From: Bacteroidota bacterium
Lineage (GTDB): Bacteria > Bacteroidota > Bacteroidia > 2-12-FULL-35-15
DNA length: 56,591 nucleotides
Direction of reading: 5' to 3'
Assembly (NCBI GenBank): GCA_025363555.1
Contig: JANYDQ010000372.1
Location: 1 to 56,591, forward strand
This document shows positions 2-21,239 of the stretch, one piece after another; the first letter of the stretch is position 1; each line of letters opens with the position of its first letter. Under the pieces are notes generated by a model that saw only the letters and a program-made list of their open reading frames with translations, ran no database searches and was not told the origin of the DNA. Both the position numbers and the translations under genes were made by a program.

Positions 2-961
2 ATGAAACCTGCGTCAAGCCCAACTGCAGTGGTTCGAGTGCCATCATTTAATCCATTATTAATATATGGAGGAGTTGGATTAGGAAAAACCCATTTATCC
101 CATGCAATAGGTATTCAAATAAAAAATCAGTTTCCATCAAAAACTGTTCTTTATGTTTCTTCCGAAAAATTTACGCAACAATATATTGATTCGGTAAGAA
201 ATAATAACCAAAACGATTTTATACACTTTTATCAAATGATAGATGTATTAATAATTGATGATGTACAATATTTCGCTGGAAAAGAAAAAACCCAAGATGT
301 GTTTTTTCACATATTTAATCACTTACATCAATCAGGTAAACAATTAGTTTTAACTGCAGATAAAGCACCTGTAGAATTACAAGGATTTGAGCAACGGTTG
401 CTTTCCCGTTTTAAATGGGGTTTAGCCGCTGACCTGCAAACTCCCGGGTTAGAAACAAGAATTGCTATACTAGAGAAAAAAGTTTATGCTGATGGAATTG
501 ATTTACCAAGAGATGTTATTGAATACCTTGCTTATAGTATTACAACCAATGTAAGAGAATTAGAAGGTGCTTTAATTTCATTACTTGCTCAATCATCTAT
601 GAACAAAAAGGCAATCAATCTGGAACTTGCAAAACAAATGATTGATAAATTTGTAAAAAACACTGCACGTGAAGTGTCTATTGATTATATACAAAAAGTA
701 GTTTGTGATTATTTTGAATTGCCTCTTGAATTATTAAAATCTAAAACACGCAAACGTGAAGTTGTTCAGGCTAGACAAATTGCTATGTATTTCGCAAAGA
801 GTATGACAAAATCTTCTTTAGCAACCATCGGTTTACATTGTGGCGGAAAGGATCACGCTACTGTACTTCATGCTTGTCGTACTGTAAACAACCTAATGGA
901 TACAGATAAGCGATTTAAAAATTATATTGACGAGTTGAATAAAAAAATCACTATTCAATAA
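2..961 (+). CDS. dnaA: Chromosomal replication initiator DnaA, 5'-truncated (domains III-IV)
   Basis: FNPLLIYGGVGLGKTHL Walker A, LIIDDVQ Walker B, RLLSRFKWGL, NVRELEGAL, ARQIAMY and GGKDHATVLHA domain IV signature. The first ~14 codons do not look like DnaA. Confidence 0.98.
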   Translation: MKPASSPTAVVRVPSFNPLLIYGGVGLGKTHLSHAIGIQIKNQFPSKTVLYVSSEKFTQQYIDSVRNNNQNDFIHFYQMIDVLIIDDVQYFAGKEKTQDVFFHIFNHLHQSGKQLVLTADKAPVELQGFEQRLLSRFKWGLAADLQTPGLETRIAILEKKVYADGIDLPRDVIEYLAYSITTNVRELEGALISLLAQSSMNKKAINLELAKQMIDKFVKNTAREVSIDYIQKVVCDYFELPLELLKSKTRKREVVQARQIAMYFAKSMTKSSLATIGLHCGGKDHATVLHACRTVNNLMDTDKRFKNYIDELNKKITIQ

Positions 962-2220: not shown

Positions 2221-3528
2221 TTACAATTTTAAAGCTTTTGCCTGACGTGAAGATTTTGCAGGATTCCAATTGTCCTTATATGATGCTTTAAAGAATATTT
2301 CCTGAATATATGCAGTAGTCCTTACTATCCTTAAAAAATAACCGAAATAAAATACCATTAATGGAATATAAATCAGGAAATAAGTAATTCCTTCGTTTTT
2401 GCGGTCACGAAAAGGGGAAAACACAAGAAACTTCATAAAATTGTTTACAGTGTATAACACAATATTCATTGGAACAATAAATACTAATTGTGAAGTAAAA
2501 TTAAAAAGCATATCTAACAAATAAAAATACCATTTTACATTCAATATTAAATTATACGTTACATTTTCAACAAAAGAAATAAAATTTGAAAACCTAAAAG
2601 AATCATTGGGAATGAAAACATCTCTATGCTTTCGCAAACGAAATCTGATAAGTGATTTATCCCAACGCAAACGTTGTTTAATAAGCCTGTTGAAAGTTAC
2701 CGGAACACTTGTTTGGCATACTGCAGTTGGTTCGAAATGGATGACATAACCAAGTTTACGAATTTTAACCGTAATGTCACCATCTAAACCGGGACCAATG
2801 TCCCAACCCCCGAGCCTATCTAAAGCCTCTTTTCTGAATGCTCCAAATGCTCCCGAAATAACTCTATAGATACCTAACTCGCTTGTAGTAATTCGACCAA
2901 TGGATATAGTATCATAATATTCTAAAGCTTGTAAAGTCGCACAAAGACTTTCTTTGTAATTACGAACTTGAACATTCCCACCAACAGCTCCAATTTTGGG
3001 ATTATAAAAAAATGGTACCAAAATGTTCTCAATTGCATCCCTGTCGTAAGAACAGTCTGCATCGAAATGAACTATAAACTCACCTCGTGCATAACGTAAT
3101 CCTAAATTAGCCGCAGAAGCTTTTCCTCCTCTTACATCATTTCTATAAAAGGCATTAATCATTCCATTATGTTCAAGATTTCGGCAAATGACTGCCGTAT
3201 CATCATCAGAGCCATCATCAATAACTATTAATTCAAAATTCTGGTAGGTTTGTTCTTTGAGGGAATTAACCAGTTTGAAAATATGTTTCCCTTCGTTTCT
3301 TCCGGGAACTATAATTGAAACGAGAGGTTGGCTTTTTAAAAGAGAAAGACGAGCATCAGCAATACCTTTCTTTCTGAAAATACTGTCGAACTTCCAGAAA
3401 ATAATGGTAGAAATTTCGATAAGAAAAAAACGAAAAAATTCGAAAATAAAAAAAAACCAAAACATTCGGAATAGCTTTGCAGCATCAACCGAAGACATGT
3501 AATTAATAAATTCGTCAAGAAAACGCAT
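2221..3528 (-). CDS. Processive GT2 polysaccharide synthase (PgaC/IcaA/hyaluronan synthase-like)
   Basis: DDGSDD, GKASA, DAD, GLDGD and QRLRW (QxxRW) motifs. One N-terminal and several C-terminal TM segments. Confidence 0.9.
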   Translation of the reverse strand: MRFLDEFINYMSSVDAAKLFRMFWFFFIFEFFRFFLIEISTIIFWKFDSIFRKKGIADARLSLLKSQPLVSIIVPGRNEGKHIFKLVNSLKEQTYQNFELIVIDDGSDDDTAVICRNLEHNGMINAFYRNDVRGGKASAANLGLRYARGEFIVHFDADCSYDRDAIENILVPFFYNPKIGAVGGNVQVRNYKESLCATLQALEYYDTISIGRITTSELGIYRVISGAFGAFRKEALDRLGGWDIGPGLDGDITVKIRKLGYVIHFEPTAVCQTSVPVTFNRLIKQRLRWDKSLIRFRLRKHRDVFIPNDSFRFSNFISFVENVTYNLILNVKWYFYLLDMLFNFTSQLVFIVPMNIVLYTVNNFMKFLVFSPFRDRKNEGITYFLIYIPLMVFYFGYFLRIVRTTAYIQEIFFKASYKDNWNPAKSSRQAKALKL

Positions 3529-4961
3529 TAATCAAATAATTCTTTTGTTAGTTCGTCAAGTTGAAATTCTGATTTGTTAAATGGTTGAAGTAATTTGACT
3601 TTAAAATTAATCTTTACTTCAAAGTCATTAAAATTATTCCGTATAAGTTTTTCAATTAGTGTTTTTAAATTCAGTAAATCTGCTTCTGACTGAAGATAAT
3701 CGCAGTTTATCAAGCCTAAATATAAAGTGGAAGAATTCTCAAATGCAATAAAATCCGTTGTTCTTATATTCTCACGAACAAGATTTACTATGTTTTCTAA
3801 TATTGATTTTTCTCCTTTTTTACCTGTCTTTTTATATAACTCTAAAATGTTTTCTATGTTAATGATTGCAATACTGGATTTTTGTTCGGTGTTATCTTTT
3901 ATCCGCTCAATTTCATAGTGTAATAGTGTCTTAAATACAGGCATACTTATGGCTCCGAAAATATCTTCCACTTCTCTGCCACTCGAAAGAAATCCATTTG
4001 CTGCCGCAGTTCTTCCTCTCTTGGTAAGTTTATAAATATTAATTGATTTAGGAATGAGATATTGTACTTCAATATCCTGGGTACAGGAAATACATTTTGC
4101 TTTTACAAAAAAGTCTTGAAAATTTTTATCACAATTATTGCAATGATGGATAATGGAAGGCTTATCATAATCAACACCGATATGGCGTAAAGCTTTATTG
4201 CATTTAGGACAAGTCAGAGAATTATCAATGGTATTTCGGAAATCGGATAATGGTCCGATATAAGCGCAAGGAAAGTGGTGAACCAAATCCTGAGCACTTG
4301 AATTAGAGGAATTACAATGCGGACAAACTTCACGATAACTTAAAAATCCACCATTGCAATTATTACACAAATAGATTCGTTCGAAAAAATCTGGCCAGAT
4401 CAATCCTTCCTTTTCACCCCATCCTAAAATTTCAAGAACTTGTGTTTCTTCTGCAGAATCAAAGTTTACAGATATTTCCGGATAAGTATAACCAATGGCA
4501 GAATTTAAATCGGGGATAGGTTTGAGTGTTTTTAAATCACGGGTGTACATGTAATTCAACACTTTCTTTACCATTTGAGCTTCGAATGTTGCTACCAATT
4601 GATAATCCAATTGGGTAGTTTTTAAAAATATTTGTTTTGCAACATCGGCAATATCTTTTAACTGATCGTATGAATGAATTATCCCATCATTCATATTTTG
4701 GAGAATCGGATCTTTTGATTCTTTATAATTAATTAAAAAAATTGGTTTTAAATAAAATTCGGGATTATAGTGCCCGCGAATTTTCCTTAGAATCAGCTTA
4801 GCAAAATCAGCATCCTTAGAATCAATAATAATGGCATCGTAGCCAATTAATGGTTCGATTTTTACACTACTGGTGCTGTCAATAATAAAGAACAAAAGAT
4901 TTTCAAATTCAATCTTATTATTTCTTATTTCGATGGATTGAGGAACTACTTTTAATGACAT
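3528..4961 (-). CDS. Zinc-ribbon (TackOD1-like) protein with N-terminal receiver-like region and C-terminal degenerate GGDEF-like domain
   Basis: CNNC, CPHC, HFPC, CPKC, CNNC, CISC motifs plus LRHIGVDYDKP. C-terminal IRTTDFIAFENSSTL matches RxxD-x5-(GGDEF) spacing. Stop overlaps the GT2 start (TAATG). Confidence 0.75.
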   Translation of the reverse strand: MSLKVVPQSIEIRNNKIEFENLLFFIIDSTSSVKIEPLIGYDAIIIDSKDADFAKLILRKIRGHYNPEFYLKPIFLINYKESKDPILQNMNDGIIHSYDQLKDIADVAKQIFLKTTQLDYQLVATFEAQMVKKVLNYMYTRDLKTLKPIPDLNSAIGYTYPEISVNFDSAEETQVLEILGWGEKEGLIWPDFFERIYLCNNCNGGFLSYREVCPHCNSSNSSAQDLVHHFPCAYIGPLSDFRNTIDNSLTCPKCNKALRHIGVDYDKPSIIHHCNNCDKNFQDFFVKAKCISCTQDIEVQYLIPKSINIYKLTKRGRTAAANGFLSSGREVEDIFGAISMPVFKTLLHYEIERIKDNTEQKSSIAIINIENILELYKKTGKKGEKSILENIVNLVRENIRTTDFIAFENSSTLYLGLINCDYLQSEADLLNLKTLIEKLIRNNFNDFEVKINFKVKLLQPFNKSEFQLDELTKELFD

Positions 4962-4988
4962 GATTACAAGTATTTAATTTTTCAATTC

Positions 4989-6092
4989 TTAATATTTATA
5001 TTTAGTTATTGTTGCACCCAACTTATAAAATGATTTCCAATGTTTGTATTCCGATTCTTCCACCGGATAAATATCAGCTGCTATGGTTCTTGTTGTTGGT
5101 TCATAACGTTTTTGAAATTCATCAGGCAAGGAATAGGTTGCGTAATAAAATCTCTTTATTATCCCGCTGCTTTTTGTTCCATCAGGAAATTCGATATTTA
5201 CCATATCGCCCTCTTTAAAATAATTCATGTCTTCCTGTTCAAAAAATCCTTTTATGTACATAGGGGTATTTTTATGAATAGCCAATATCTGATCAGATTT
5301 TAAAGCCACTTCAAATTGCTGGGTATAAATTCTTGTAACGGTACCGTTTATCGGGGAATAAAATACTTTTGTACTATCCATAATGCCTCCCCCACCATTA
5401 GCGCCTCCACCCAATATCAATCCATTCCTGGTGCTTAAAATCTGAACCTTTTTTTCAGATTCGCCTAATTGATAGATAAGTCCGTAATACTGCATGTTTT
5501 CACTATTCAATGCGTCAATAGCGGTATTTAAACGCAGTATTTCGTTTTGAACATATTCCAACCTGCTTTTTGGCAATACATCTAACACTACCTCATTTTC
5601 TAACCTTTGCAGCTCGGACTCATAACTTTTTATTAACGACTTATCTTGAGTAATTAAAATCTGATTGGTTCCTGCTTTTTTCTGAAGAGCATACTTTTCC
5701 TTTTCTCTCCAATCCAATTGATTTTGATAGGTAGTATCATTGTATCCACCTTTTACTCCTCCGGTTGCTCCAAAACCACCTCCATCCAAATTAGTTTTAG
5801 CAGGAGTGTAAACAAATAATGAATCTCCTTTACGAACCGTATCACCTTCTTTTTTCTGATAAGACAAAACACGGCAATCTTCCGTTAAACGAATGATTAC
5901 GTTTTCATACAAAACCTGCCCGTCAGCTTTTATATAAAACAATTTATTTACGGCATAATAACTTAAAAAAACAAGAGCCCCGATAATAAATACAATATAA
6001 ACTACTCTATCCCAATTGTATTTAATCTTCCTGGTATCTTCGTTCATTACTCGTATTGCCGAGCCTTTTCTTTTAAAATCTATACTTTTCAA
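4989..6092 (-). CDS. HlyD/membrane-fusion-protein family periplasmic adaptor
   Basis: Single N-terminal TM, lipoyl half motifs (KEGDTVRKGDSL; YSPINGTV), central coiled coil, C-terminal beta-barrel. TTG start uncertain. Confidence 0.8.
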   Translation of the reverse strand: MKSIDFKRKGSAIRVMNEDTRKIKYNWDRVVYIVFIIGALVFLSYYAVNKLFYIKADGQVLYENVIIRLTEDCRVLSYQKKEGDTVRKGDSLFVYTPAKTNLDGGGFGATGGVKGGYNDTTYQNQLDWREKEKYALQKKAGTNQILITQDKSLIKSYESELQRLENEVVLDVLPKSRLEYVQNEILRLNTAIDALNSENMQYYGLIYQLGESEKKVQILSTRNGLILGGGANGGGGIMDSTKVFYSPINGTVTRIYTQQFEVALKSDQILAIHKNTPMYIKGFFEQEDMNYFKEGDMVNIEFPDGTKSSGIIKRFYYATYSLPDEFQKRYEPTTRTIAADIYPVEESEYKHWKSFYKLGATITKYKY

Positions 6093-6109
6093 AATATTAT
6101 GGTTTTGGT

Positions 6110-8221
6110 TTATTTCTGATTTTGATTTACGCTCAATTCATCTAATTTTACAAATGTTTCTAAATCATGCATGGCAAAATTAGATGTATTTAAAAGTTGA
6201 TTTAATTCTGAAATTAACTTTTCGCATTCATTCCTGTTATTAAAATCTTTAGCTCTTAAAGCAATCGTTGTTTTATTAGCATCTATTGCAAATTCTTCTT
6301 TTACTTTTCGAACAATATAATCAGCGTCATTATGCTCATAAGCCATTATATATACCTTGTCCGCCTGTGCATAAATATCTTTTAATGTTTCTTCAGGATA
6401 AAAAACAGGGATGGAAACACTTAACTGCAAACCCTTTTGAGTACAATAGTTTTTTGCTGTCTTCAATAGCTCAACGTATTGTTTCAGATAATTTTCTTTG
6501 TTTGCATCCCAATCGCTCATGGTATGAGGTTCCACATCTAAATGAATGGCAGTTATTGCTTTCAAATCCAATCCATTTGTAACAGAGTCAAAATAGGCCG
6601 TTGGTTTTGAAGAGGTGAGCAATTTATTACTTCCTATTAAAAGTTCAACCTTTATTCCTTTAGAATTCAATTTATTTATTAATACCTCTGCTTCAGTTTT
6701 GTTCGACTGGTCTTTTTTCAAAGATAAAATGGCAGTAGAAATTTTATTCAATCTTAAGTATTCGGCAATATAAGATGACTCATATTTTTTTTGAGCATCC
6801 GACCAGATATACATACTCCGGTTTATTTTTTCTGTTGCTATGGAAAGCGTATCTATTTTATATGGCATAATAATTTTTTCAATATCTGCACTTGGTGCTT
6901 TTGAATGAATGTCTAATAATTGTAAATACATTTGCTGCTGAATATCCAGCATCTCAATATCAACCGTTAACATTTCATCTAAAAGGTTAAGTGCTGTTAG
7001 TGGATTAAACTCTAAATCTCCAAATTTTTCCTTTACTCTTTCGATACGAACTAACTCTTCATATTTTTTCCTCTTCTCATAAAAATTGCTGTACTGTTTA
7101 AGTTTGTATCTGAACTCATAAAATGAATTTAATAAGTCTGTTTGTCTAGCTTTAGAACCTTCTTTCTGGTCGAATTCGAGAAGCTTGGTTTGAGCGGTAA
7201 CAAGATTTTTATTTGCTTTTATTCGCAATGGAATTGGAACTGCAACTCCCACCCCAGCCGACATATAGTTTCTGCTGTAAATACTATTAACCAAATCGTA
7301 GTAATTAAATCGCACTTGTGCATTTAACTTAATATCACTTAAAGGCTTATGAGCCAGTTTTAAATTTTCAATTTGTAACTTCAAAATGCTGTCATTTCCA
7401 TTTGCATGCACGGCAGCCGAATCAACCGAAAGAAACTTTGAAAAATCAACATCAAATACCGGCAAAATATTTTTAGGTAACGAATCCACGTTCATTTTCA
7501 TTTTCAATTCGTCATTATAGCTTTTATAAATTTTATTCATACTCCCCACATCTACCTGCTGCTGCATAATTTCAAGCAAGTTAATTCTCGATAAATGTTT
7601 TAATAAATATAATTCATTGGCAACCGATATTTTATCATCAATAATTTGCTGGCGTTTTTCAAGTATTTTTATTTTATGTATATTAAATGAATAAATTATT
7701 TTATGCGAAACAGCAATATAATCTTCCCCGTCATTTTTTTTGGTCTGTGGAGTTAACGAAACTATTGTGTTTTCATTTTTTAATATACGTTGCTTATACC
7801 TGTTCTCAATAAAACCATCCGAGAGAATATTCCAGTCCAGCCCAACCTGGTACCTAAAGTGATATAATAAATTGTCGTCTGTATTAAAACCCGGATTAAA
7901 ATTTTGAAGATAATTTCCTACCCCTTCTAACCCTATATCTTTTTTCAAAAGATTTATTTTAGCTTCATTTACCCTTTTTACATACTCGGCATCCGACACA
8001 GATTCGGAAGCACTTATTTTATACAACTTAGGCACGGAGGCAAAACTTTCGTATTTCTTTTCTTCCCTTGAAACATCGTTGTCTAAACTCCAGACTGCTT
8101 TTAATTCACTTATTTTAAAAGAAATGAGAGAATCTTTACTGTCCTTGGATTGTGAAAATGAAAGCAACGACAAAACGGAAAATAGTGTGGTTACATTTAA
8201 TACTTTAATAAAGTACTTCAT
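6110..8221 (-). CDS. Secreted protein: TolC-like outer-membrane efflux region fused to a C-terminal TIM-barrel glycoside hydrolase-like domain
   Basis: Signal peptide. Two helix plus amphipathic beta-hairpin halves (YQVGLDWNIL; SAGVGVAVPIPL) as in OEP repeats. C-terminal MYIW...IHLDVEPH...VYIMAYE. Confidence 0.6.
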   Translation of the reverse strand: MKYFIKVLNVTTLFSVLSLLSFSQSKDSKDSLISFKISELKAVWSLDNDVSREEKKYESFASVPKLYKISASESVSDAEYVKRVNEAKINLLKKDIGLEGVGNYLQNFNPGFNTDDNLLYHFRYQVGLDWNILSDGFIENRYKQRILKNENTIVSLTPQTKKNDGEDYIAVSHKIIYSFNIHKIKILEKRQQIIDDKISVANELYLLKHLSRINLLEIMQQQVDVGSMNKIYKSYNDELKMKMNVDSLPKNILPVFDVDFSKFLSVDSAAVHANGNDSILKLQIENLKLAHKPLSDIKLNAQVRFNYYDLVNSIYSRNYMSAGVGVAVPIPLRIKANKNLVTAQTKLLEFDQKEGSKARQTDLLNSFYEFRYKLKQYSNFYEKRKKYEELVRIERVKEKFGDLEFNPLTALNLLDEMLTVDIEMLDIQQQMYLQLLDIHSKAPSADIEKIIMPYKIDTLSIATEKINRSMYIWSDAQKKYESSYIAEYLRLNKISTAILSLKKDQSNKTEAEVLINKLNSKGIKVELLIGSNKLLTSSKPTAYFDSVTNGLDLKAITAIHLDVEPHTMSDWDANKENYLKQYVELLKTAKNYCTQKGLQLSVSIPVFYPEETLKDIYAQADKVYIMAYEHNDADYIVRKVKEEFAIDANKTTIALRAKDFNNRNECEKLISELNQLLNTSNFAMHDLETFVKLDELSVNQNQK

Positions 8222-8263: not shown

Positions 8264-8296
8264 CAAATATATTAACAATTTTTCTGAACCACCAAA
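8264..8296 (-). promoter_or_regulatory. Bacteroidota primary-sigma promoter of the 8221-2221 operon
   Basis: Minus strand: TTTG (8296-8293), 21-nt spacer, TATATTTG (8271-8264), matching the -33 TTTG / -7 TAnnTTTG consensus. Confidence 0.7.
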
Positions 8297-8345: not shown

Positions 8346-9296
8346 CTACAACTTTTTCTCTATTTGGTAACGATTTCTATCGCCAGAACTGCGTGAAATC
8401 AATTCTCCCAGGAAGCCGGCAAGAAATAATTGAGTGCCGATAACCATGGCTATAAGTGCCAAATAAAATAATGGTTTATCGGTTACGTCTCGGGTGGGAA
8501 TATGATAATGTGACTTATATATCTTCTCTATGATCAAAATTAAGGAAACTATTCCGCCAAATAAAAATGAAAGTGTTCCCCATAATCCAAAAAAGTGCAT
8601 GGGGCGCTTTCCGAATTTGGAAACAAAGGTGATGGAAGTTAAGTCTAAAAAACCATTGATAAACCTTTCGATACCAAACTTTGTTTTTCCATATTTTCGT
8701 TCCTGATGGTGAACCACCTTTTCTTCTATCTTAGTAAATCCTGCCCACTTAGCAATAACAGGAATATAGCGGTGCATTTCGCCATATACTTCAATGTTTT
8801 TTACTACTTCCTTTTTATAAGCTTTCAGTCCGCAGTTAAAATCATGAAGATTGTTTATTCCGCTTGCTTTGCGTGTTGCCCAGTTAAATAGTTTGGTAGG
8901 AATTGTTTTTGTAATAGGGTCGTATCGTTTTTGTTTCCAGCCGGAAACCAAATCCAGCCCGTCATCAAAAATCATTTTATATAAACCAGGAATTTCATCG
9001 GGTGAGTCCTGCAAATCTGCATCCATGGTAATAACCACATCCCCCTGGGTAATTGCAAATCCTTCATTTAATGCAGCCGACTTGCCATAATTTCTTCTGA
9101 ACTTTATTCCTCTTATGTTTTTATTGTTTTCCGAAAGTTGCTCTATCACTTTCCATGAAGCATCTGTAGAACCATCGTCCACCAGGATAATTTCATAACT
9201 AAAATTATTGGCGAGCATAACCCGCTCAATCCACTGGCATAGTTCAGGCAAAGATTCTTCTTCGTTAAATAAAGGAATGACAACAGAAAGATTCAT
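8346..9296 (-). CDS. GT2 polyprenol-phosphate glycosyltransferase (ArnC/DPM1-like)
   Basis: LSVVIPLFNEEE, VDDGS, RNYGKSAAL, MDADLQD, GEMHRYIP, two C-terminal TMs. Start moved to ATG 9296, downstream of the -7 box. Confidence 0.92.
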   Translation of the reverse strand: MNLSVVIPLFNEEESLPELCQWIERVMLANNFSYEIILVDDGSTDASWKVIEQLSENNKNIRGIKFRRNYGKSAALNEGFAITQGDVVITMDADLQDSPDEIPGLYKMIFDDGLDLVSGWKQKRYDPITKTIPTKLFNWATRKASGINNLHDFNCGLKAYKKEVVKNIEVYGEMHRYIPVIAKWAGFTKIEEKVVHHQERKYGKTKFGIERFINGFLDLTSITFVSKFGKRPMHFFGLWGTLSFLFGGIVSLILIIEKIYKSHYHIPTRDVTDKPLFYLALIAMVIGTQLFLAGFLGELISRSSGDRNRYQIEKKL

Positions 9297-9302
9297 AGAG
9301 GG

Positions 9303-9310
9303 CAAAGATA
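9303..9310 (-). promoter_or_regulatory. -7 promoter element TATCTTTG
   Basis: Exact TAnnTTTG 6 nt upstream of ATG 9296. Confidence 0.6.
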
Positions 9311-9329
9311 AAAACAAAATGCAATTGAA

Positions 9330-11585
9330 TTATCTTTTTATAATCTTTATCTCTACCCTCCTGTTTTGTTGATGCTGGGCTTCATCACATTTTACATGGT
9401 CGGCACATTTGTTTACCAAATCAATCTCTCCTCTGCCTTTGGTAATGGTTTTTGTTTTATCAAATCCTCCTTTTACAATATAGTTTTTTACAGCCACAGC
9501 ACGTTTTACTGAAATAAGCTGGTTATTCTTTTTAGTACCCTTCGAATCGGTATGACCAACTATTATAAGAGTTAAATCTGGAAAAGCAGTTAACACTGTT
9601 TTAATGTTATCCAGTTTTGTTATTGCTTCTGCTTTCAGTTCGGTATGGTTAAAATCGAAATAAACCGGTTGAATATCCAACCCTAATTTTGCGGTTTGTT
9701 CTTTCGTTAATTCTCCATGAATATCTTTTAACTCATTGGAGTAATAGTTTGCAATACCGGGTTTCAATGCTTCTGCGTTTGTTCCGCCTTTTTTCAAAGG
9801 TGATTCTTTTAAAACTGATTCTTTTGCAGCTTCAGACTTTTCTGCTGCTGCTTTTTCTTTTTCTGCCTTTGTTGTTTTAGTTTTTGCACCACCCGTTTTC
9901 AAATCTATTTTATTTAAACTTTCCGCTTCGGCAATGTGTGCATCTATATTTCTTTCATCGTTTACATTCAAATTAGAAGTAACATCCGTACTTATGCTTT
10001 CGACCGTTTGCACCGAAACATTTTTTTCCGAACAGGCAATATAGGGATTGAGACAAGTATCGCACCAAGCCATTAGCTTTGCTTTCACCTTATAATTCCC
10101 GATTGCCTTAAAGTCGTATTCTATGTTTTTTGAATCTTCCGAAATAATAGAATCATTCACCAGCCAGTTAAACGAAATAACTTTGTCTTTCATATTGCCG
10201 GGAATCTGTGCAGATAATATAAATTTATTTCTTTCGCCTGGCTTAGAAGATGCATCAATGTTTAAGGTTGTTGCTTCCGGGCTGTTACAATCCAATAAAT
10301 ATTTATCCATAAAATTAATTTTATAAATATCATAATCACCAAGTCCTCCTGCACGGGAAGAAGAAAAATATCCTGCATTTCCTGCTGCATTAATAATAAA
10401 GAAAATATCATTGGCACTGCTGTTAATAGGTAATCCTAAGTTTTCGGGAGTACTCCATTTGCCGTTTTCATATACGGTTTTAAAAATATCGAACCCTCCG
10501 TACCCCACATGCCCTTTGGAAGAAAAGTAAAGTGTTTTGCCATCATCGGCAATAAAAGGAGATTCTTCGTCAAATTCTGTATTAATTACTTTACCAAGGT
10601 TTTCGCGCACTCCCCAACTTCCGTCCTGTTTTTTAACCGATTTATAAATATCATTCCCCCCGTTGCCAATTGCTGATTCGCTGGTAAAATAAAGTGTTTG
10701 TCCGTCTTTACTCAAACTGGCATGATTCTGATAATAATCAAAATTAATTATTTTATCCAGTTTTTTAGGGTGCTCCAATGAAGCAGTTAAATCTCCCTGG
10801 TATATTTTTCCGTTTTTATACAGAAACATTTCTTTTCCATCGGGCAACATAGATATAACCGATTCGTCACTGCTGCTTAGTTTAGAAATTAATGACGATT
10901 TAGGAATGGTAAACAATTTTGGCGCAGTAGTGCGTCCGTTATGCATATGGGCAATATACATGGCTTCAAAATATTGTCCGTTATACAAATTAAATTTTTC
11001 TTTTTCATCGTCTTTTCTTTTCGATGTAAAAATCATCTGGTTGTTTCCCGTAAGCACAGGCACATATTCGGGCATATCTGTATTAATAGTATTCCCCGCA
11101 TTTACCACATACCATTTGGTGGCGGAAACGGTTTGGTTATTCTCTTTAGCATAATTACAATCGGCAATGTTTTGGGTCAGCTTTTTTTCAAACATTTTAT
11201 CATCTATATCTTCATATCGTTTCAGTTTTTGAAAATAATAAATGGCTGAATCGTATTTTCCCAGATACTGAAAGTTTCTTCCCAGTGCAAACATCAGGGC
11301 GGGTGCGGTATCTTTTTTAGGATTTAATTTCAATGCCTTTTCAAGATAAGGAAGACTATTATCATAGTTTTCAATATAGTCAGTAAGCAATATTGCCATC
11401 CCCAAATTAGCGTTGTAATTATCAGGTCTGTGAGATAATGCTTTTAAATAATAGGTTTTTGCTTTATTATAATCTGCTGTATATATAGCATTATCGGCAA
11501 GGTACATATCTCTTTTAAACTGAGAAAAACTATAATTAGCCTGGAGTAAAAAAAGGAGGAATACTATTTTGTAAGAATGTTTCAT
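9330..11585 (-). CDS. OmpA-family protein with TPR and PD40 beta-propeller repeats (PorE-like architecture)
   Basis: Signal peptide, TPR helices, PD40 repeats (DGQTLYFTS, DGKTLYFSS), C-terminal OmpA domain (VYFDFN, GHTD, NRRVEI). Confidence 0.9.
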   Translation of the reverse strand: MKHSYKIVFLLFLLQANYSFSQFKRDMYLADNAIYTADYNKAKTYYLKALSHRPDNYNANLGMAILLTDYIENYDNSLPYLEKALKLNPKKDTAPALMFALGRNFQYLGKYDSAIYYFQKLKRYEDIDDKMFEKKLTQNIADCNYAKENNQTVSATKWYVVNAGNTINTDMPEYVPVLTGNNQMIFTSKRKDDEKEKFNLYNGQYFEAMYIAHMHNGRTTAPKLFTIPKSSLISKLSSSDESVISMLPDGKEMFLYKNGKIYQGDLTASLEHPKKLDKIINFDYYQNHASLSKDGQTLYFTSESAIGNGGNDIYKSVKKQDGSWGVRENLGKVINTEFDEESPFIADDGKTLYFSSKGHVGYGGFDIFKTVYENGKWSTPENLGLPINSSANDIFFIINAAGNAGYFSSSRAGGLGDYDIYKINFMDKYLLDCNSPEATTLNIDASSKPGERNKFILSAQIPGNMKDKVISFNWLVNDSIISEDSKNIEYDFKAIGNYKVKAKLMAWCDTCLNPYIACSEKNVSVQTVESISTDVTSNLNVNDERNIDAHIAEAESLNKIDLKTGGAKTKTTKAEKEKAAAEKSEAAKESVLKESPLKKGGTNAEALKPGIANYYSNELKDIHGELTKEQTAKLGLDIQPVYFDFNHTELKAEAITKLDNIKTVLTAFPDLTLIIVGHTDSKGTKKNNQLISVKRAVAVKNYIVKGGFDKTKTITKGRGEIDLVNKCADHVKCDEAQHQQNRRVEIKIIKR

Positions 11586-12506: not shown

Positions 12507-13970
12507 TTATTTCTTCCATTTAATATAGTGATGATATTCCGGAATAATGTTTAAAACATACACCGAAACAGCATACACCAAAGTAATAACCGATGATTTA
12601 ATAAGGATAGAAACAATTGCATTTGAAAAAGAAGGAATACTAAAAGCCACAGCAAAAGAAAGAACAATAACCATCATTATTTTTAAGCTCGACTGATTAT
12701 AGGGCTGCATATTGAAATTTTTAAGAATGATAAAATACTTTAATGCATTATATATAATGGACGAGATAACAGTAGCCAAAGCTGCTCCGATTATTCCGTA
12801 AAGCGGAATTAAAATGATATTTAACAGAATAGCCGTAATCAGTAACATAAATAATAAATAGGTTCCGTAAATATATTTTTCAGAAGAAAAAAGAATGGAA
12901 GTGTTCACTCCTGTTGACACATTTAGAAACGCGCCAATACAAGCAATAACGGCTACCATGGCTCCCTGGTGGTAGGGTTCGGGAAGGAGAGATAATAACT
13001 CATTTACATTGGCAGTGATACCCACTAACAGAATCCCGCCTATCAACATTAAATATTTTACAGATTGTGAATATATTTTTCTGATGCTCTCTGTGTCTTT
13101 ATTTACCCATGCCTGGGCTATTTTAGGATTGGTTATCCTTTCCAGAGACGAAAGCGGAATTTCTATTACCAAACCAATAAAAGAGGCAAGTGCAAATATC
13201 CCGACATAATCCAGGTTCATGTATTTTCCAATCATTATGGAATCAAGGTGCTTTAATCCGATGGAAGAAAAATTAGTAAGCGTTAACAATAAACCAAAAC
13301 CAACCAGTTTATTTACACCAACAGATTTCAAAAACTGGGTATCAATTCTTAAAGAGGGCTTATCAATAGTGTTGATATAGATAACCATGGCTATTACCTG
13401 CAATAAATAAATACAGACATATAAATACATCAATTGTGTTAAATCAATCCAACCAAAATAATAGAAAACAATAATGATGATAAATAATATCCTGGACACA
13501 ATGCCTTCAAAAAAGCTGATAACAGAGGTTTTAAATAGCGAAGAACAATACGCATTAAGCGTCATATTGACTCCTATAATGAAAGCAAACGGCAAAACCA
13601 AATGGAAATAGTGAGTAAATAAATAAGACTGATGGATGTATTGTTGTATAATTAAATTCTTAAAAGCATACATCAATATGCCACAGACAACTAATCCTGT
13701 CAAAGGAAAAAGAAGCATAAAGCCAAAATAACCGTGGTGCTTTTTTTCTGCATTTCTGAAGTAAGGAAAGAATTTGGTGGTAACACTGCTCACTCCTAAA
13801 GGTAAGATAGTAGCGATTAAACTGGCAGCGGCAATCAGTATTTTTGTTAATCCGAGTTCTTCAGGTTTTAGTAAATTGGGTTGAATAAATAATAAGCTTA
13901 CAAAGCCAATAACCACCCCTAAATAGGTAATGATGGTATTCCTGATGCTTTGTTTTTTTATTGTACTCAA
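12507..13970 (-). CDS. Oligosaccharide flippase (Wzx/MOP family)
   Basis: About 12-14 TM segments, DSIMIG..VGIF, LNIILIPLYGIIGAALAT. Confidence 0.88.
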   Translation of the reverse strand: MSTIKKQSIRNTIITYLGVVIGFVSLLFIQPNLLKPEELGLTKILIAAASLIATILPLGVSSVTTKFFPYFRNAEKKHHGYFGFMLLFPLTGLVVCGILMYAFKNLIIQQYIHQSYLFTHYFHLVLPFAFIIGVNMTLNAYCSSLFKTSVISFFEGIVSRILFIIIIVFYYFGWIDLTQLMYLYVCIYLLQVIAMVIYINTIDKPSLRIDTQFLKSVGVNKLVGFGLLLTLTNFSSIGLKHLDSIMIGKYMNLDYVGIFALASFIGLVIEIPLSSLERITNPKIAQAWVNKDTESIRKIYSQSVKYLMLIGGILLVGITANVNELLSLLPEPYHQGAMVAVIACIGAFLNVSTGVNTSILFSSEKYIYGTYLLFMLLITAILLNIILIPLYGIIGAALATVISSIIYNALKYFIILKNFNMQPYNQSSLKIMMVIVLSFAVAFSIPSFSNAIVSILIKSSVITLVYAVSVYVLNIIPEYHHYIKWKK

Positions 13971-13991
13971 TTTAATAATTCTTAACTCGCA

Positions 13992-14744
13992 TTAAGTCAT
14001 CGACTTTTTTGTTGCTCTATGAAAAACATAACGGAATAAAATATAAATATGATTCCAGAGTGTCTGAAAAAAGCCATAGTGCTTCGACATAATTCTGAAA
14101 CGTTCCATCCATGCAGTAAGTTTGTTTCGTTGAGACATTCCGCCTTCCAGGAATTTAGATATATAAATATTTGTATTCACTGTTTTGTCCGATTGCTTCA
14201 GCACATTAATCACCCAATCAATGTCGGCAGCTATGGCATAGTTTAAATTATAATAATCGCAAAGCAACCTTCTGGCAATAAACGATTGATGGGAAACACA
14301 CATGCCATATTTCAAACTTTTCCAGTCGAGATGTGCAGGCGGAGAGAGCCTTCTGTCGCCCAGAATAATTCCCTGTTGATTTACCACCGCTGAATTTCCA
14401 TAATATACATCCGCATTGGGTAACGATGTAAAAACAGTTGTTAGTGTATCCCTGTCATACAATTCATCTCCGGCATTCAGAAACAAAACATAATCGCCTG
14501 TTGCATCTTTTAACCCTTTATTCATGGCATCATATATACCATTATCTTTTCCTGACAGGATAAGTGCTATCTGCGATTGATACTTTTCAGCAAGTTCCAG
14601 CGTTCCGTCATCCGAACCACCGTCAATAATAATGAATTCAATATTAGTATAGGATTGAGAAATTACGCTTTTTATTGTTTGTTCAATAAACGATTTAGCG
14701 TTATAAACTACCGTAACAATGCTTATTTTGGGATTAAACCGCAT
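13992..14744 (-). CDS. GT2 glycosyltransferase (WcaE-like)
   Basis: ISIVTVVYN, IDGGSDDGT, DNGIYDAMNKG, FLNAGD, HQS motifs. Confidence 0.92.
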   Translation of the reverse strand: MRFNPKISIVTVVYNAKSFIEQTIKSVISQSYTNIEFIIIDGGSDDGTLELAEKYQSQIALILSGKDNGIYDAMNKGLKDATGDYVLFLNAGDELYDRDTLTTVFTSLPNADVYYGNSAVVNQQGIILGDRRLSPPAHLDWKSLKYGMCVSHQSFIARRLLCDYYNLNYAIAADIDWVINVLKQSDKTVNTNIYISKFLEGGMSQRNKLTAWMERFRIMSKHYGFFQTLWNHIYILFRYVFHRATKKSMT

Positions 14745-15472
14745 TAGTTTCTAAAGAAAATGCCATTACACTGCAACACAATTCCTGTTTTGTTATCTGT
14801 AAAAGCAGGGACAATGCTGGTCAGCTGAAACCCTTTTTGCTGCATATAATCCAATACCTGCGGCAATAGCCAGTCCTGGCGTTCGTATAACGGAACCAAC
14901 GAAATTTCTATCTCTACCCCTTTTACTTTATCAATCATGCTTCGTGCACCTATCAGTACTTCCTGCTCAAATCCCTGGACATCTATTTTCAGAAAAATGT
15001 TTTTCGCATTTCCACAATACTCCTCCCCTATTTCATCCAGGGGATACACATGCACCATCTCTTTACCAATAATTTTTGATTCGGGTGCGCCCTCAATATG
15101 CGAATCCAGCATATTTAAAAGCGTACTGCTTACTGAATTTGCAGAAATATTAATTTCTATTTCTTTGTTTTTACTTCCTATGGCACACCGTGGAGCAACG
15201 GTCCAGTTCGAATGTTTGCTGCTTTCGGTTTCAATAACAGAATGCACAGAAGACAGGGGCTCGAAAGAAACAATTTTATTTCTGTAACCAGCATCCATTA
15301 TGCCCAGTGCGTATTGTCCTTTGTTGGCTCCAATATCAAAAACCAAATCAATTTCATAATGCTCCAGAAGTTTAATACGTCTCAATTCCTCGCTGGTAGC
15401 TGGGTTGTATTTGCGGATAAGTATTCCAAATCTTTGGAATATTTTTTTTGTTATGCGTTCAAAACTATTCAT
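14744..15472 (-). CDS. FkbM family methyltransferase
   Basis: FDIGANKGQY, SFEP, LKIDVQGFE motifs. Confidence 0.92.
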   Translation of the reverse strand: MNSFERITKKIFQRFGILIRKYNPATSEELRRIKLLEHYEIDLVFDIGANKGQYALGIMDAGYRNKIVSFEPLSSVHSVIETESSKHSNWTVAPRCAIGSKNKEIEINISANSVSSTLLNMLDSHIEGAPESKIIGKEMVHVYPLDEIGEEYCGNAKNIFLKIDVQGFEQEVLIGARSMIDKVKGVEIEISLVPLYERQDWLLPQVLDYMQQKGFQLTSIVPAFTDNKTGIVLQCNGIFFRN

Positions 15473-15582
15473 AAAAGCAGGCGGTTGATTTTAGTTTACA
15501 ATATTAAGAATTTTGTCTCTACAATATCAAATAAAATGTTTGCCAGCTAATCACATGGCATTTAAAACCCCATTATTTTATT

Positions 15583-15590
15583 TACATTTG
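15583..15590 (+). promoter_or_regulatory. -7 promoter element TACATTTG
   Basis: Exact TAnnTTTG 7 nt upstream of ATG 15598. Confidence 0.6.
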
Positions 15591-15597
15591 CGAACCA

Positions 15598-16476
15598 ATG
15601 TCGGCAGAAAAAACATATAACGGATTTTCTTCATTTATAAATCAATGCATACAAACAGTTGCATCGGTAATAAAAGTAATTATAAAACGGAAAGGCGGTA
15701 GTGCTTTGCCCCAGGCATGGTCACGCACTTGCATTGTTTTAGGCAATGGTCCATCGTTAAAAACTTCGCTGGACAAACATGCTGATTTTTTTACCCAACA
15801 TCCCTTAGTGTGTGTCAACAGTTTTTCCACTACCAAAGAATATACATTGCTTCAACCTGTTTATTATGTTATTCTTGATCCTGGTTTTTGGCTGAGCAAA
15901 AGCCAGGTGGTAACTGATACTATTGAATGTCTTCAAACCAAAACGACCTGGCCTCTTTATATGTTAGTGCCACATGCTGCAAAACAATCATCCCATTTCA
16001 GGGAGTTGGAAAAACATAATTCGAATATAAAAATAAATTACTTTAATTATACGGTTTATAAAGGGTTTGAAGGGTTAGGTAACTGGTTGTTTAAAAAAAA
16101 TCTTGCTATGCCTCAATCACAAAACGTATTGGTAGCCTCCTTGTTTCTTTCTGTTAATATTGGGTTTAAGGAAATATATGTGTTTGGTGCAGATCATAGC
16201 TGGCACGAAAACTTAATTGTAAACGAAGATAATGTACTTTGTTTTAAAGACTCGCATTTTTATGATGATATAACGCAAAAGCCAACTTATCGACCGTTTT
16301 ATAAAGGTTTACACTTAAAAGAAGTATTCACCATAAGCGAAATATTGATGACCTTCAGCAAAATATTTTATGGTTATGAAGTAATTAATAAATATGCTAA
16401 CCATTGCAACGCCAAAATTTATAACGCAAGTGAAGTTTCATTTGTAGATGCGTTTGAAAGAATAAAAATAAATTAA
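15598..16476 (+). CDS. DUF115/Maf-like (sialyltransferase-like fold) protein
   Basis: CIVLGNGPSL, CVN, GFKEIYVFGADH, IYNAS motifs. Confidence 0.7.
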   Translation: MSAEKTYNGFSSFINQCIQTVASVIKVIIKRKGGSALPQAWSRTCIVLGNGPSLKTSLDKHADFFTQHPLVCVNSFSTTKEYTLLQPVYYVILDPGFWLSKSQVVTDTIECLQTKTTWPLYMLVPHAAKQSSHFRELEKHNSNIKINYFNYTVYKGFEGLGNWLFKKNLAMPQSQNVLVASLFLSVNIGFKEIYVFGADHSWHENLIVNEDNVLCFKDSHFYDDITQKPTYRPFYKGLHLKEVFTISEILMTFSKIFYGYEVINKYANHCNAKIYNASEVSFVDAFERIKIN

Positions 16477-16478
16477 AA

Positions 16479-17174
16479 ATGAACATGAGAGCGCTATTTT
16501 CTTCTCCTACTGCTTACTGGCTTAAATGGCTTTTTACAAAATGGAAACTCGAGGCAAAATACCGCAAACAACATCTGCACCTGGAATATATGGCTGAAGT
16601 AAAAAACTGTACATTCCATAATTACAATACCGTATACAAGTTTGCCCGCCTTCGTAATTCAGAGTTGGGCGATTTCAGTTATGTAGCCCGCAATTCTCAA
16701 CTATACAATACCAAAGTTGGTAAATTTACCTGCATCGGACCAAACGTGAGTGCCGGCATGGGTGCCCATCCATCAGAAGGGTATGTTTCCACTCACCCGC
16801 TTTTTTATTCCACCCTCGGACAAGCAGGGGGGTTAGTTATTGTAGAGAAAAATTTATTTGATGAATTTCCATCCACCCAAATTGGTAACGATGTATGGAT
16901 TGGAAATAATGCCATTATTAAATACGGAATCAAAATTGGAGATGGTGCCATCATCGGCTCCGGGGCAATGGTTACAAAGGATGTAGAGCCATACAGTATT
17001 GTAGGCGGTGTTCCTGCAAAAATCATTAAGTATCGTTTCACAGAAGAACAAATAGAATTTCTTCAACACTTTAAATGGTGGGACAAAGACCTTGATTGGC
17101 TCAAAAAAAACAAAAACCTGTTTCAAAACATCGGAGAATTCGAAAAAGAATTCTCTAAAAACAAAACCATTTAA
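16479..17174 (+). CDS. CatB/Vat-related hexapeptide-repeat O-acetyltransferase
   Basis: STHP, IGNDVWIG, IGDGAIIG, VTKDVEPYSIVGGVPAKIIKYRF, KWWD. Confidence 0.9.
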   Translation: MNMRALFSSPTAYWLKWLFTKWKLEAKYRKQHLHLEYMAEVKNCTFHNYNTVYKFARLRNSELGDFSYVARNSQLYNTKVGKFTCIGPNVSAGMGAHPSEGYVSTHPLFYSTLGQAGGLVIVEKNLFDEFPSTQIGNDVWIGNNAIIKYGIKIGDGAIIGSGAMVTKDVEPYSIVGGVPAKIIKYRFTEEQIEFLQHFKWWDKDLDWLKKNKNLFQNIGEFEKEFSKNKTI

Positions 17175-21191: not shown

Positions 21192-21239
21192 TTTATTACA
21201 TTTATTACCAGGTAATTTTCTTTCTAAATTAATCATCAT

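Follow-up and report, generated by a model that had tools for sequence, protein, structure and literature searches.

Based on gene order, profile searches, predicted folds, and conservation among related genomes, we analyzed a four-gene operon in a 56,591-nucleotide (nt) stretch of DNA from a Bacteroidota bacterium (hereafter, the window; positions 1 to 56,591 of contig JANYDQ010000372.1, assembly GCA_025363555.1). The operon probably encodes a synthase-dependent polysaccharide system, in which a polymer, likely of N-acetylhexosamine (HexNAc), would leave the cell through a tunnel built of a periplasmic adaptor and a TolC-type outer-membrane channel. Textbook synthase-dependent systems (Bcs, Pga, Alg, and Pel) use a TPR/beta-barrel porin and cyclic di-GMP (c-di-GMP). 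The four genes described here encode, in the order of transcription, a TolC-fold channel fused to a TIM barrel (gene 1), an adaptor of the EmrA/HlyD type (gene 2), a protein that joins a receiver-like fold, a TackOD1 zinc ribbon, and a dead GGDEF fold (gene 3), and a processive family 2 glycosyltransferase (GT2; gene 4). Sequence, fold, and synteny establish these parts, from which we infer export, and the four genes are likely to form a self-contained polysaccharide secretion module. Its features are as follows (aa, amino acids; GH, glycoside hydrolase).

2221..8221, minus strand: four-gene module of 6 kb, transcribed from 8221 towards 2221 (listing of open reading frames, ORFs)
8264..8296, minus strand: promoter-like motif TTTG-N21-TATATTTG, located 5' of gene 1 in the 124-nt spacer (pattern match)
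6110..8221, minus strand: gene 1, 703 aa; signal peptide, divergent outer-membrane factor (OMF), and C-terminal TIM barrel (ORF, AlphaFold2 model)
6887..8134, minus strand: OMF (TolC-fold) domain of gene 1, about aa 30–445; each protomer with four beta strands and long helical hairpins (Foldseek, VIA)
6122..6835, minus strand: (beta/alpha)8 barrel of gene 1, aa 463–700, GH18 chitinase-like and PgaB GH153-like, predicted periplasmic (VIA)
4989..6092, minus strand: gene 2, 367 aa; EmrA/HlyD-type periplasmic adaptor (membrane fusion protein, MFP) with a TTG start (HlyD_3, profile matches)
3528..4961, minus strand: gene 3, 477 aa; soluble protein with receiver-like, TackOD1, and dead GGDEF folds (Pfam, model folds)
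4614..4904, minus strand: receiver-like domain of gene 3, about aa 20–116 (VIA folds)
4026..4580, minus strand: TackOD1 zinc-ribbon module of gene 3, aa 128–312 (PF18551, E 3e-52; five CxxC and HxxC)
3531..3974, minus strand: GGDEF-fold domain of gene 3 that lacks GG(D/E)EF, aa 330–477 (VIA, Foldseek)
2221..3528, minus strand: gene 4, 435 aa; processive membrane GT2 of PgaC/IcaA-like architecture (PF00535, TIGR03937)

Organization and conservation of the four genes

The four ORFs (703, 367, 477, and 435 aa) are all co-oriented on the minus strand in a region of 31–35% G+C, and direct reading of the sequence gave intergenic gaps of 17 nt and then 27 nt, followed by a TAATG stop/start overlap between genes 3 and 4 at 3528, as the initial annotation of this stretch had reported in describing four tightly packed genes. 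Its statement that the operon contains no ABC or RND transporter, no Wzx, Wzy, or Wza protein, and no TPR-barrel gene was borne out as well, given that none was found among the four genes with Pfam and NCBIfam. The single canonical promoter that it placed upstream survives only in part. The TTTG-N21-TATATTTG motif in the spacer fits the Bacteroidetes -33/-7 consensus, but it occurs in the window no more often than expected by chance (5 sites vs. 4.1), and a sigma-70 promoter scan, which listed 31 promoter-like sites in the whole window vs. 34.5 expected, returned nothing in the 124-nt spacer. The sequencing runs that hold the region comprise four DNA runs from one study, with no RNA run among them.

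To describe conservation, two partly overlapping sets of loci were used, of which set A comprises 20 loci cut from class-wide genome matches and set B the 80 best species-genome loci; these loci come from related genomes and are hence not independent. The organism itself was assigned to Bacteroidota by its neighboring genes (PorE/CHU_0125-like and CHU_C cargo proteins) and by the source names of homologues. Among 301 sampled genomes of the class, 28 (from 15 of 167 genera) contain a member of the 703-aa family, and all four genes are colinear in 18 of the 20 loci of set A, the two exceptions being a locus cut by a contig end and a locus (G047) that lacks the GT2 gene. Scanning the GTDB species genomes with the gene 3 alignment returned at least 568 confirmed stretches, the best 80 of which all belong to Bacteroidota metagenome-assembled genomes (MAGs). 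The four-gene arrangement is far beyond chance: a neighborhood search, which the initial annotation had proposed as a check of co-conservation, recovered all four, with order and strand unchanged, in 61 of the 62 loci of set B that had room for them. In 76 of 77 loci, the GT2 gene comes directly after gene 3, and in 73 of 74 the adaptor gene comes before it. When the ORFs of the 80 loci were clustered, the four module families appeared in 79, 76, 75, and 71 loci, the next family reached only 16, and the loci had no pump, flippase, porin, or transporter in common. The earlier concern that homologous loci might always carry an ABC or RND transporter was thus answered by the absence of any conserved transporter family from these 80 loci. 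Within set A, conservation among the four proteins is highest for the GT2 (54–95% identity) and lowest for the channel (27–81%).

In a word-based search, the taxon-bearing sources of the best 120 of 440 matches were all Bacteroidota, except for one Burkholderiales label. The gene 3 family comprises 848 clusters at E ≤1e-30 and 3178 at E ≤0.001 in an exhaustive search, and the names of ten lower-ranked representatives referred only to Flavobacteriaceae and Sediminicola luteus, the latter carrying the TackOD1 family member WP_097443650.1. The nearest TackOD1(-GGDEF) clusters in the Atlas are labeled ‘commonest Pseudomonadota’, which we regard as a lead only. The gene 1 family (95 matches) has taxon-bearing source names that are all Bacteroidota lineages.

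Synthase, adaptor, and channel of the predicted tunnel

Gene 4 has the GT-A domain, the motifs, and the transmembrane segments of a QxxRW processive GT2. In Pfam, it matched PF00535 (E 9e-29) and Chitin_synth_2 (E 4e-10), and the best-scoring NCBIfam family was PgaC_IcaA (TIGR03937: 183.7 bits, positions 3–390 of 407), followed by the XrtG-associated GT2 (95.9 bits), NodC (72.7 bits), and CelA (33.2 bits) families. The equivalog cut-off of PgaC_IcaA lies at 422.3 bits, and gene 4 is accordingly not filed as PgaC; it is the sole PgaC_IcaA-type gene in the genome. The motif positions D104/D105 (DDG), D156-A-D158 (DAD), and Q285-R286-L287-R288-W289 do not vary across the 19 homologues aligned. 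The QRLRW motif named in the initial annotation reads KQRLRWDK in the 435-aa protein, and transmembrane segments lie at both ends (about aa 19–43, 340–358, and 381–402). Synthases with QxxRW and a C-terminal transmembrane bundle are processive as a rule.

An alternative product is a short NodC-like chito-oligomer, or a cell-bound or periplasmic glycan, with the tunnel releasing small molecules and the barrel setting their length. The NodC and Chitin_synth_2 matches listed above are in keeping with this idea, the 435-aa size and transmembrane layout suit NodC as well as PgaC, and a GH18-like domain would suit chitin-type beta-1,4 products. Against these points, PgaC_IcaA outscores NodC by 183.7 to 72.7 bits over a nearly full-length alignment, and the rule of processivity just cited would apply to gene 4; we consider such a product quite improbable. 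We favor a HexNAc polymer because two independent hints, the PgaC-like synthase and the GH18/PgaB-like barrel on the channel, point in this direction.

The adaptor encoded by gene 2 was recognized both in single-protein and in family searches. Its TTG start is supported by homologues that begin at the same place (consensus MKSIxFKRK), a single N-terminal membrane anchor spans aa 30–48, and Pfam HlyD_3 matched at 24.5 bits (cut-off 22.2) and was found in 20 of 21 homologues. The family profile had EmrA of the EmrAB-TolC pump as its top match (8zar_A, E 7.3e-7), followed by an HlyD-type MFP (8dck_C, E 1.7e-5) and also Aquifex EmrA (4tko_B). The alignment to EmrA covers aa 23–296, and a periplasmic coiled-coil hairpin is predicted from it. 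Because the NCBIfam EmrA subfamily model scored 28.8 bits, far below its cut-off of 390.8, gene 2 is placed in the HlyD family and not among EmrA orthologues. Judged by these profiles, it is predicted to be an adaptor of the type that serves inner-membrane partners without a large periplasmic domain. Two glycine-rich low-complexity inserts, GGGFGATGGVKGG and GGGANGGGG (aa about 100–118 and 227–236), occupy poorly conserved alignment positions.

Gene 1 yielded no significant match of its own in Pfam, NCBIfam, or PDB sequence searches, and its domain assignments are based on fold and on family members because single-protein searches did not provide them. The sole hydrophobic segment (aa 4–22) is signal peptide-like, and behind it the AlphaFold2 model (monomer, 38 homologues; mean predicted local distance difference test [pLDDT] 84.5) shows two domains. 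The first has the four strands and helical hairpins that define an OMF protomer. Foldseek aligned it with TolC (7ng9_A: E 2.2e-11, TMt 0.58), TOprJ1 (9j3d_A: TMt 0.63), and some 25 further TolC, OprM, CusC, CmeC, VceC, and MtrE entries (E 1e-8 to 2e-11, TMt 0.50–0.63), and VIA aligned it with CusC (3pik_A: Z 16.8, root mean square deviation [rmsd] 6.1, 362 aligned, model residues 61–445) and TolC (8zar_G: Z 16.6). An OMF fold is thus present in the model, and the possibility raised in the initial annotation, that the 703-aa protein might lack it, did not materialize. Pfam OEP (PF02321) recognizes 21 of 38 members of the family (E ≤0.1, best 1.6e-8) yet misses the gene 1 protein, and we therefore classify gene 1, by its modeled fold, as a very divergent OMF. 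As such, it would form a homotrimer with a 12-stranded barrel in the outer membrane.

Two variations of this architecture were seen among homologues. About a fifth of the gene 1 family (about 850–900 aa; P0044–P0059) has an extra N-terminal Ycf48/BNR beta-propeller before the OMF (e.g., L026:7498-10158, PF14870 E 8.9e-14), and in two loci (L040 [G208:C10] and G207:C7) the OMF and TIM-barrel parts lie in two adjacent pieces in different frames, as a natural split or a frameshift.

The second domain of gene 1 is a TIM barrel, which VIA aligned with 1jne_A (Z 19.6, rmsd 3.0, 228 aligned), the BpsB/PgaB hydrolase domain (6au1_B: Z 18.6, rmsd 3.6, 229 aligned), PgaB (4f9d_A: Z 17.9), and many GH18 chitinases (Z 17–19), in rows that are ties. 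The motif HLDVE (H560-L-D562-V-E564) stands at the end of barrel strand 4, and its H560, D562, and E564 are invariant in 38 of 38 family members, as are M626, Y628, and E629 of MAYE. These H-x-D-x-E and M-x-Y-E positions presumably correspond to the D-x-E of the GH18 motif DxxDxDxE, which stands at the end of strand 4 in that family, and to MxYD on its strand 6; the first two aspartates of DxxDxDxE are not kept. In an alignment with chitinase 3g6l that is not significant (E 1.4), GIDVDWE falls opposite giHLDvEp, and LMAYD opposite LMAYE. At the sequence level, Pfam Glyco_hydro_18 does not match the gene 1 protein and matches one of 38 family members (E 2e-4), and the isolated barrel had one sub-threshold repeat match in Pfam (E 0.0056). 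Among solved chains, only 10yv_A matches the barrel profile at the level of sequence (E 2.4e-4); this protein of 275 aa, entered in the PDB as ‘Putative GH97 from Cellulomonas fimi’, has the LDVEP motif in common with the barrel. Pfam Spherulin4 weakly matches two members of the gene 1 family. Both termini of TolC-type proteins face the periplasm, and the C-terminal barrel should therefore hang in the periplasm beside the tunnel.

These parts suggest the following mechanism. The GT2 would polymerize a UDP-sugar, most likely UDP-N-acetylglucosamine or another UDP-HexNAc, and pass the growing polymer through a membrane pore of its own. Like EmrA, which surrounds the small MFS pump EmrB, the adaptor protomers would be anchored next to the synthase and build a periplasmic tube, for which EmrAB-TolC (8zar) is the best structural precedent of an adaptor around a small inner-membrane partner. 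Docking of this tube to the trimeric channel would allow the polymer to cross the periplasm and the outer membrane with no need for a TPR/beta-barrel porin. At the periplasmic end of the channel, the TIM barrel may trim, release, or clear stalled chains, a job that other systems leave to PgaB-C, BcsZ, XcsC, or PelA.

The TackOD1 protein beside the synthase

The initial annotation had called gene 3 a zinc-ribbon regulator. The zinc ribbon is present, in a protein that turned out to consist of three domains, without any hydrophobic segment (model mean pLDDT 85.2). The TackOD1 module scored 177.3 bits against PF18551 (cut-off 32), with its motif residues at C199/202, C213/216, H229/C232, C251/254, C274/277, and C290/293, and its cysteines are at least 90% conserved across 150 representatives of the gene 3 family. 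A genome-wide search returned the same domain coordinates and showed that gene 3 is the only TackOD1 gene in the genome.

The flanking domains were recognized by fold, and the isolated N- and C-terminal parts of the protein matched no Pfam family. The first resembles receiver domains (VIA 3jte_A: Z 9.2, rmsd 2.5, 92 aligned; 3hv2_B: Z 8.7), and aa 1–127 gave no match to Response_reg (PF00072); neither the hidden Markov model nor the phospho-acceptor Asp plus Lys of a PF00072 receiver was recovered, and the candidate phospho-acceptor D47, based on our reading of the alignment, varies between D, E, and N among homologues. One homologue (L033:11636-13084), located ~0.9 kb downstream of the adaptor gene and not abutting it, has a canonical PF00072 receiver (77.4 bits) and a weak GGDEF match. 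Another, in L040, has an in-frame stop and was left out of the gene 3 alignment. The C-terminal domain has a GGDEF fold (VIA 5llw_B: Z 18.1, rmsd 2.4, 144 aligned; Foldseek 3ign: TMt 0.76), with FENSST at the signature position in place of GG(D/E)EF, no PF00990 match in Pfam, and no GG[DE]EF in any of the 150 best family representatives by motif count. An active diguanylate cyclase was ruled out by the missing motif. At the position of the RxxD I-site (RTTD in gene 3), R/KxxD is frequent and not universal among homologues. Because GGDEF, EAL, and PilZ each had zero matches in this genome (96.9% complete), a role as c-di-GMP receptor is unlikely here. From its modeled folds, gene 3 resembles a regulator of the PleD/WspR type that has gained a zinc module and in which both signaling domains have degenerated.

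How such a protein would act was considered in two ways. It may control the operon, either by binding DNA as a zinc-ribbon transcription factor or in the manner of a conventional response regulator, and be no partner of the synthase. The architecture parallels those of PleD, WspR, and DgcR (VIA rows spanning model residues 9/21–477), one homologue has the canonical receiver described above, and, according to Galperin et al. 2018 (PMC5847659), a similar cysteine arrangement exists in the DNA-contacting insert of PriA. Nevertheless, no helix-turn-helix or other DNA-binding family was detected in gene 3 with Pfam and NCBIfam, and the stop/start overlap together with the adjacency to the GT2 gene in 76 of 77 loci suggests stoichiometric co-production with the synthase. 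The dead GGDEF domain also recalls PelD-type receptors (PelD 4dmz_A: Z 9.6), which act on synthase complexes. Transcriptional control by gene 3 therefore appears unlikely to us.

In a complex prediction, the GT2 and the TackOD1 protein scored 0.36 (runs 0.36, 0.27, and 0.43), compared to a best score of 0.00 among three controls, with partner pLDDT of at least 78 and runs that agree in at least 75% of contacts. The tool returned a verdict of weak support; in its calibration, 58 of 80 solved complexes passed the mark, as did 2 of 110 mismatched pairs, and passes at scores ≤0.60 comprised only 7 of the 80 solved complexes yet both passing mismatched pairs. The low value of the score counts in favor of a transcription factor, and its distance from the three controls counts against it. 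Because the score coincides with the stop/start coupling and the near-universal adjacency, we give direct regulation of the synthase by the TackOD1 protein a little over an even chance. The protein would then bind the cytoplasmic face of the synthase and switch it post-translationally, taking the place that c-di-GMP receptors have in other synthase systems.

Related systems, counter-evidence, and neighboring genes

The initial annotation knew of no characterized example of a GT2 synthase serving as the inner-membrane part of an MFP-channel conduit, and proposed a new class. The anatomy of the four proteins, the OMF fold, the co-conservation, and the lack of a conserved pump argue for such a conduit, but the idea has precedents, since the same tripartite logic has been published for Xcs cellulose and for BgsBA-TolC glucan, and ‘new class’ is too strong. 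In PMC8892547 and PMC12430437, a tripartite exporter of synthase, HlyD-like protein, and TolC is proposed for cyanobacterial cellulose (Maeda et al. 2018, cited through these two papers). There, an HlyD-like protein and a TolC-like exporter replace BcsB and BcsC in Thermosynechococcus, with the parts being the synthase XcsA, the HlyD-like XcsB, the endoglucanase XcsC, and the TolC-like Tlr1605; in the 2025 review among these papers, the genes are described as not lying in one operon and the model as lacking validation. According to PMC13438883, disruption of tolC in Sinorhizobium meliloti abolishes the BgsBA mixed-linkage glucan and complementation restores it, and the authors propose a BgsA-BgsB-TolC complex. 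A further HlyD-like element is the MexA/HlyD-like periplasmic part of Alg44 in the alginate system, as mentioned in PMC8892547 / PMC12430437.

Xcs resembles the module in having a processive GT2, an HlyD-like adaptor, a TolC-type channel, a glycoside hydrolase, no BcsB/BcsC parts, and the same proposed tunnel; it differs in its BcsA-type synthase with PilZ under c-di-GMP control, its unlinked TolC gene, and its separate hydrolase. In contrast, the module has a PgaC-like synthase without PilZ, an operon-encoded channel fused to a hydrolase-like domain, and a TackOD1 protein. BgsBA, as described in PMC13438883, likewise pairs a GT2 and an HlyD-type adaptor in one operon with a proposed tripartite complex. 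Unlike the module, it has a BgsA C-terminal domain that binds c-di-GMP, a housekeeping TolC encoded elsewhere, neither a hydrolase nor a TackOD1 protein, a glucan polymer, and an alphaproteobacterial host. With a CelA score of 33.2 bits and no PilZ in gene 4, the features of an Xcs or Bgs synthase were not found; the module is thus predicted from its sequences to work like these systems, with a synthase that is not a member by descent.

The Pga and Ica systems (PgaABCD/IcaADBC) resemble the module in the synthase, which scores best on PgaC_IcaA, and in the barrel, which resembles the PgaB/BpsB hydrolase (Z 18.6 and 17.9). The operon differs in having no PgaA TPR/beta-barrel porin, PgaD, IcaD, or carbohydrate esterase family 4 deacetylase, in its proposed export by an adaptor-OMF tunnel, and in a GT2 that scores below the equivalog cut-off. 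GHL13, the C-terminal domain of PgaB, had zero matches in the genome, and a true Pga system was ruled out by the lack of PgaA, PgaB, and PgaD among the four genes. EmrAB-TolC and HlyBD-TolC share with the module an anchored adaptor, here matching EmrA and HlyD-type MFPs, and a TolC-fold channel, but the conserved inner-membrane partner in the module is a glycosyltransferase, not an MFS or ABC protein, and the channel carries an extra enzyme-like domain.

For gene 3, regulators of the PleD/WspR type offer the combination of receiver-like and GGDEF folds, and PelD offers a degenerate GGDEF domain encoded next to a polysaccharide synthase. Gene 3 differs from them in the TackOD1 module between the two domains, in the absence of GG(D/E)EF from 150 representatives, in lacking a membrane anchor or GAF domain, and in a genome without detected c-di-GMP enzymes or PilZ. 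Thaumarchaeota TackOD1 response regulators (Galperin et al. 2018, PMC5847659) have the full cysteine set after a receiver or receiver-like domain, as gene 3 does, whereas gene 3 is bacterial, has an added dead GGDEF fold, and is fixed beside a GT2 synthase. In that paper, the function of TackOD1 is called obscure, archaeal copies are placed in type IV pilus loci, and five CxxC plus HxxC are described.

Searches of the literature, with supplementary tables outside their scope, returned no description of this Bacteroidota module with its channel-hydrolase fusion and TackOD1 protein. No paper was found that joins PgaC, HlyD, and Bacteroidetes, or that describes a pgaC synthase-dependent operon of Bacteroidetes, and a query on poly-N-acetylglucosamine, TolC, MFP, and glycosyltransferase returned only a biofilm-resistance review and an RTX exoprotein study, both unrelated judging by their titles. 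TackOD1 was named in one paper only (PMC5847659). The main text of the operon survey PMC7112194 (its supplementary tables outside the scope) contains none of the terms ‘Bacteroidetes’, ‘HlyD’, ‘TolC’, or ‘membrane fusion’, and ‘HlyD’ is absent from the 300,000 characters of PMC13721041 that were searched. The combination of a PgaC-like synthase, an operon-encoded channel-hydrolase fusion, and a TackOD1/dead-GGDEF regulator, in a genome without a detected c-di-GMP apparatus, seems to be undescribed.

Several observations weigh against export of a HexNAc polymer through the tunnel. The score of gene 4, 183.7 bits, is so far below the PgaC_IcaA cut-off of 422.3 that the sugar is a guess. The gene 1 protein itself has no Pfam OEP match even at E 0.1, and a PDB profile search with the full-length family alignment returned no TolC chain. 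Matches of the barrel tie across many GH families in VIA, and its top row (1jne, imaginal disc growth factor-2) is a non-catalytic chitinase-like protein; in addition, homologue L038 has D replacing the motif glutamate and lacks M-x-Y-E. The contact between synthase and adaptor is one that we infer, and the complex score of 0.36 for the synthase and its putative regulator falls in a class more often wrong than right unless the guess is likely beforehand. Synteny has its exceptions as well, with the GT2 of G047 on another contig (69% identity) and locus L128 without an adaptor or channel in the 1.5 kb upstream. Judged from sequence, the module is real and widespread, and its polymer, that polymer's composition, its export, and the expression of the operon are predictions.

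The genome also holds 21 OEP half-domain matches, that is, ~11 other OMF genes, because of which the adaptor and channel could have an unlinked pump partner. In that case, they would serve an ABC or MFS transporter encoded elsewhere, the cargo would be a glycolipid or a polymer-acting protein, and the GT2 would be merely co-regulated. Classic MFP-OMF pairs need an energized pump, the separate contig of the GT2 in G047 fits such a view, and the authors of PMC13438883 themselves allow an indirect role of TolC. Yet no transporter family is conserved in the 80 loci, where the largest non-core family reaches 16, and the GT2 exceeds the other three proteins in conservation (54–95% vs. 27–81% for the channel) and is adjacent in 76 of 77 loci. 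A glycan-hydrolase-like domain on the channel would, moreover, be sensible only if a glycan passes by. We consider an unlinked pump very improbable and retain the synthase as the probable inner-membrane part of the tunnel.

Directly upstream of the module, on the same strand, lies an ArnC/PgfS-like GT2 (323 aa, 8346–9317, minus strand; PRK10714 178 bits, below cut-off), which accompanies the module in only 16 of 80 loci and is therefore a lineage-specific neighbor and not core. Beyond it lies the gene of a TPR, PD40, and OmpA protein (751 aa, 9330–11585, minus strand) that is CHU_0125-like and PorE-like (type IX secretion system; 231 and 191 bits, below cut-offs) and is found near the module within the same genus only. 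Further upstream on the strand of the module, a Wzx-like Polysacc_synt flippase gene (12507..13970) belongs to a separate Wzx-type glycan cluster (12507–17174: the flippase-like gene, a GT2, an FkbM methyltransferase, an MptE-like gene, and a hexapeptide acyltransferase). In the clustering of the 80 loci, the Wzx-like and TPR-PD40-OmpA genes do not travel with the module. Two large tandem proteins (1073 and 1135 aa, 18018–24647, minus strand) contain Ig_7/PKD repeats and CHU_C type IX secretion signals, and a Por_Secre_tail protein is encoded at 33104–35161. A partial dnaA gene (Bac_DnaA and DnaA_C, 2–961, plus strand) runs off the window start; behind it, a low-molecular-weight phosphotyrosine phosphatase and an RsmI-like methyltransferase are encoded by genes that converge on the module.

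Export by an adaptor-TolC tunnel has rested on two cases: a modeling proposal for Xcs cellulose and a genetic requirement for TolC in the production of a rhizobial glucan. Finding all parts, including a dedicated channel, in one conserved 6-kb operon gives the tunnel model strong comparative support, and the operon is compact enough to be reconstituted, which makes this contested model testable. The module also places a synthase system in a genome without detected c-di-GMP genes, and links the TackOD1 domain to polysaccharide synthesis, giving it a candidate role. According to record titles, many freshwater, soil, and wastewater Bacteroidota MAGs carry the module, which may be a common matrix or capsule pathway. 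In the most far-reaching interpretation, to which we give clearly less than an even chance, it would be a widespread secretion machine with the synthase as its inner-membrane engine, independent of c-di-GMP, equipped with a dedicated glycanase-bearing channel, and controlled by a TackOD1/dead-GGDEF allosteric switch; as part of this same tentative picture, the switch would sense a metal, the redox state, or another nucleotide, and gate the synthase directly. If true, this would be the first function for TackOD1 and the first operon-encoded, reconstitutable case of polysaccharide export via a tripartite tunnel.

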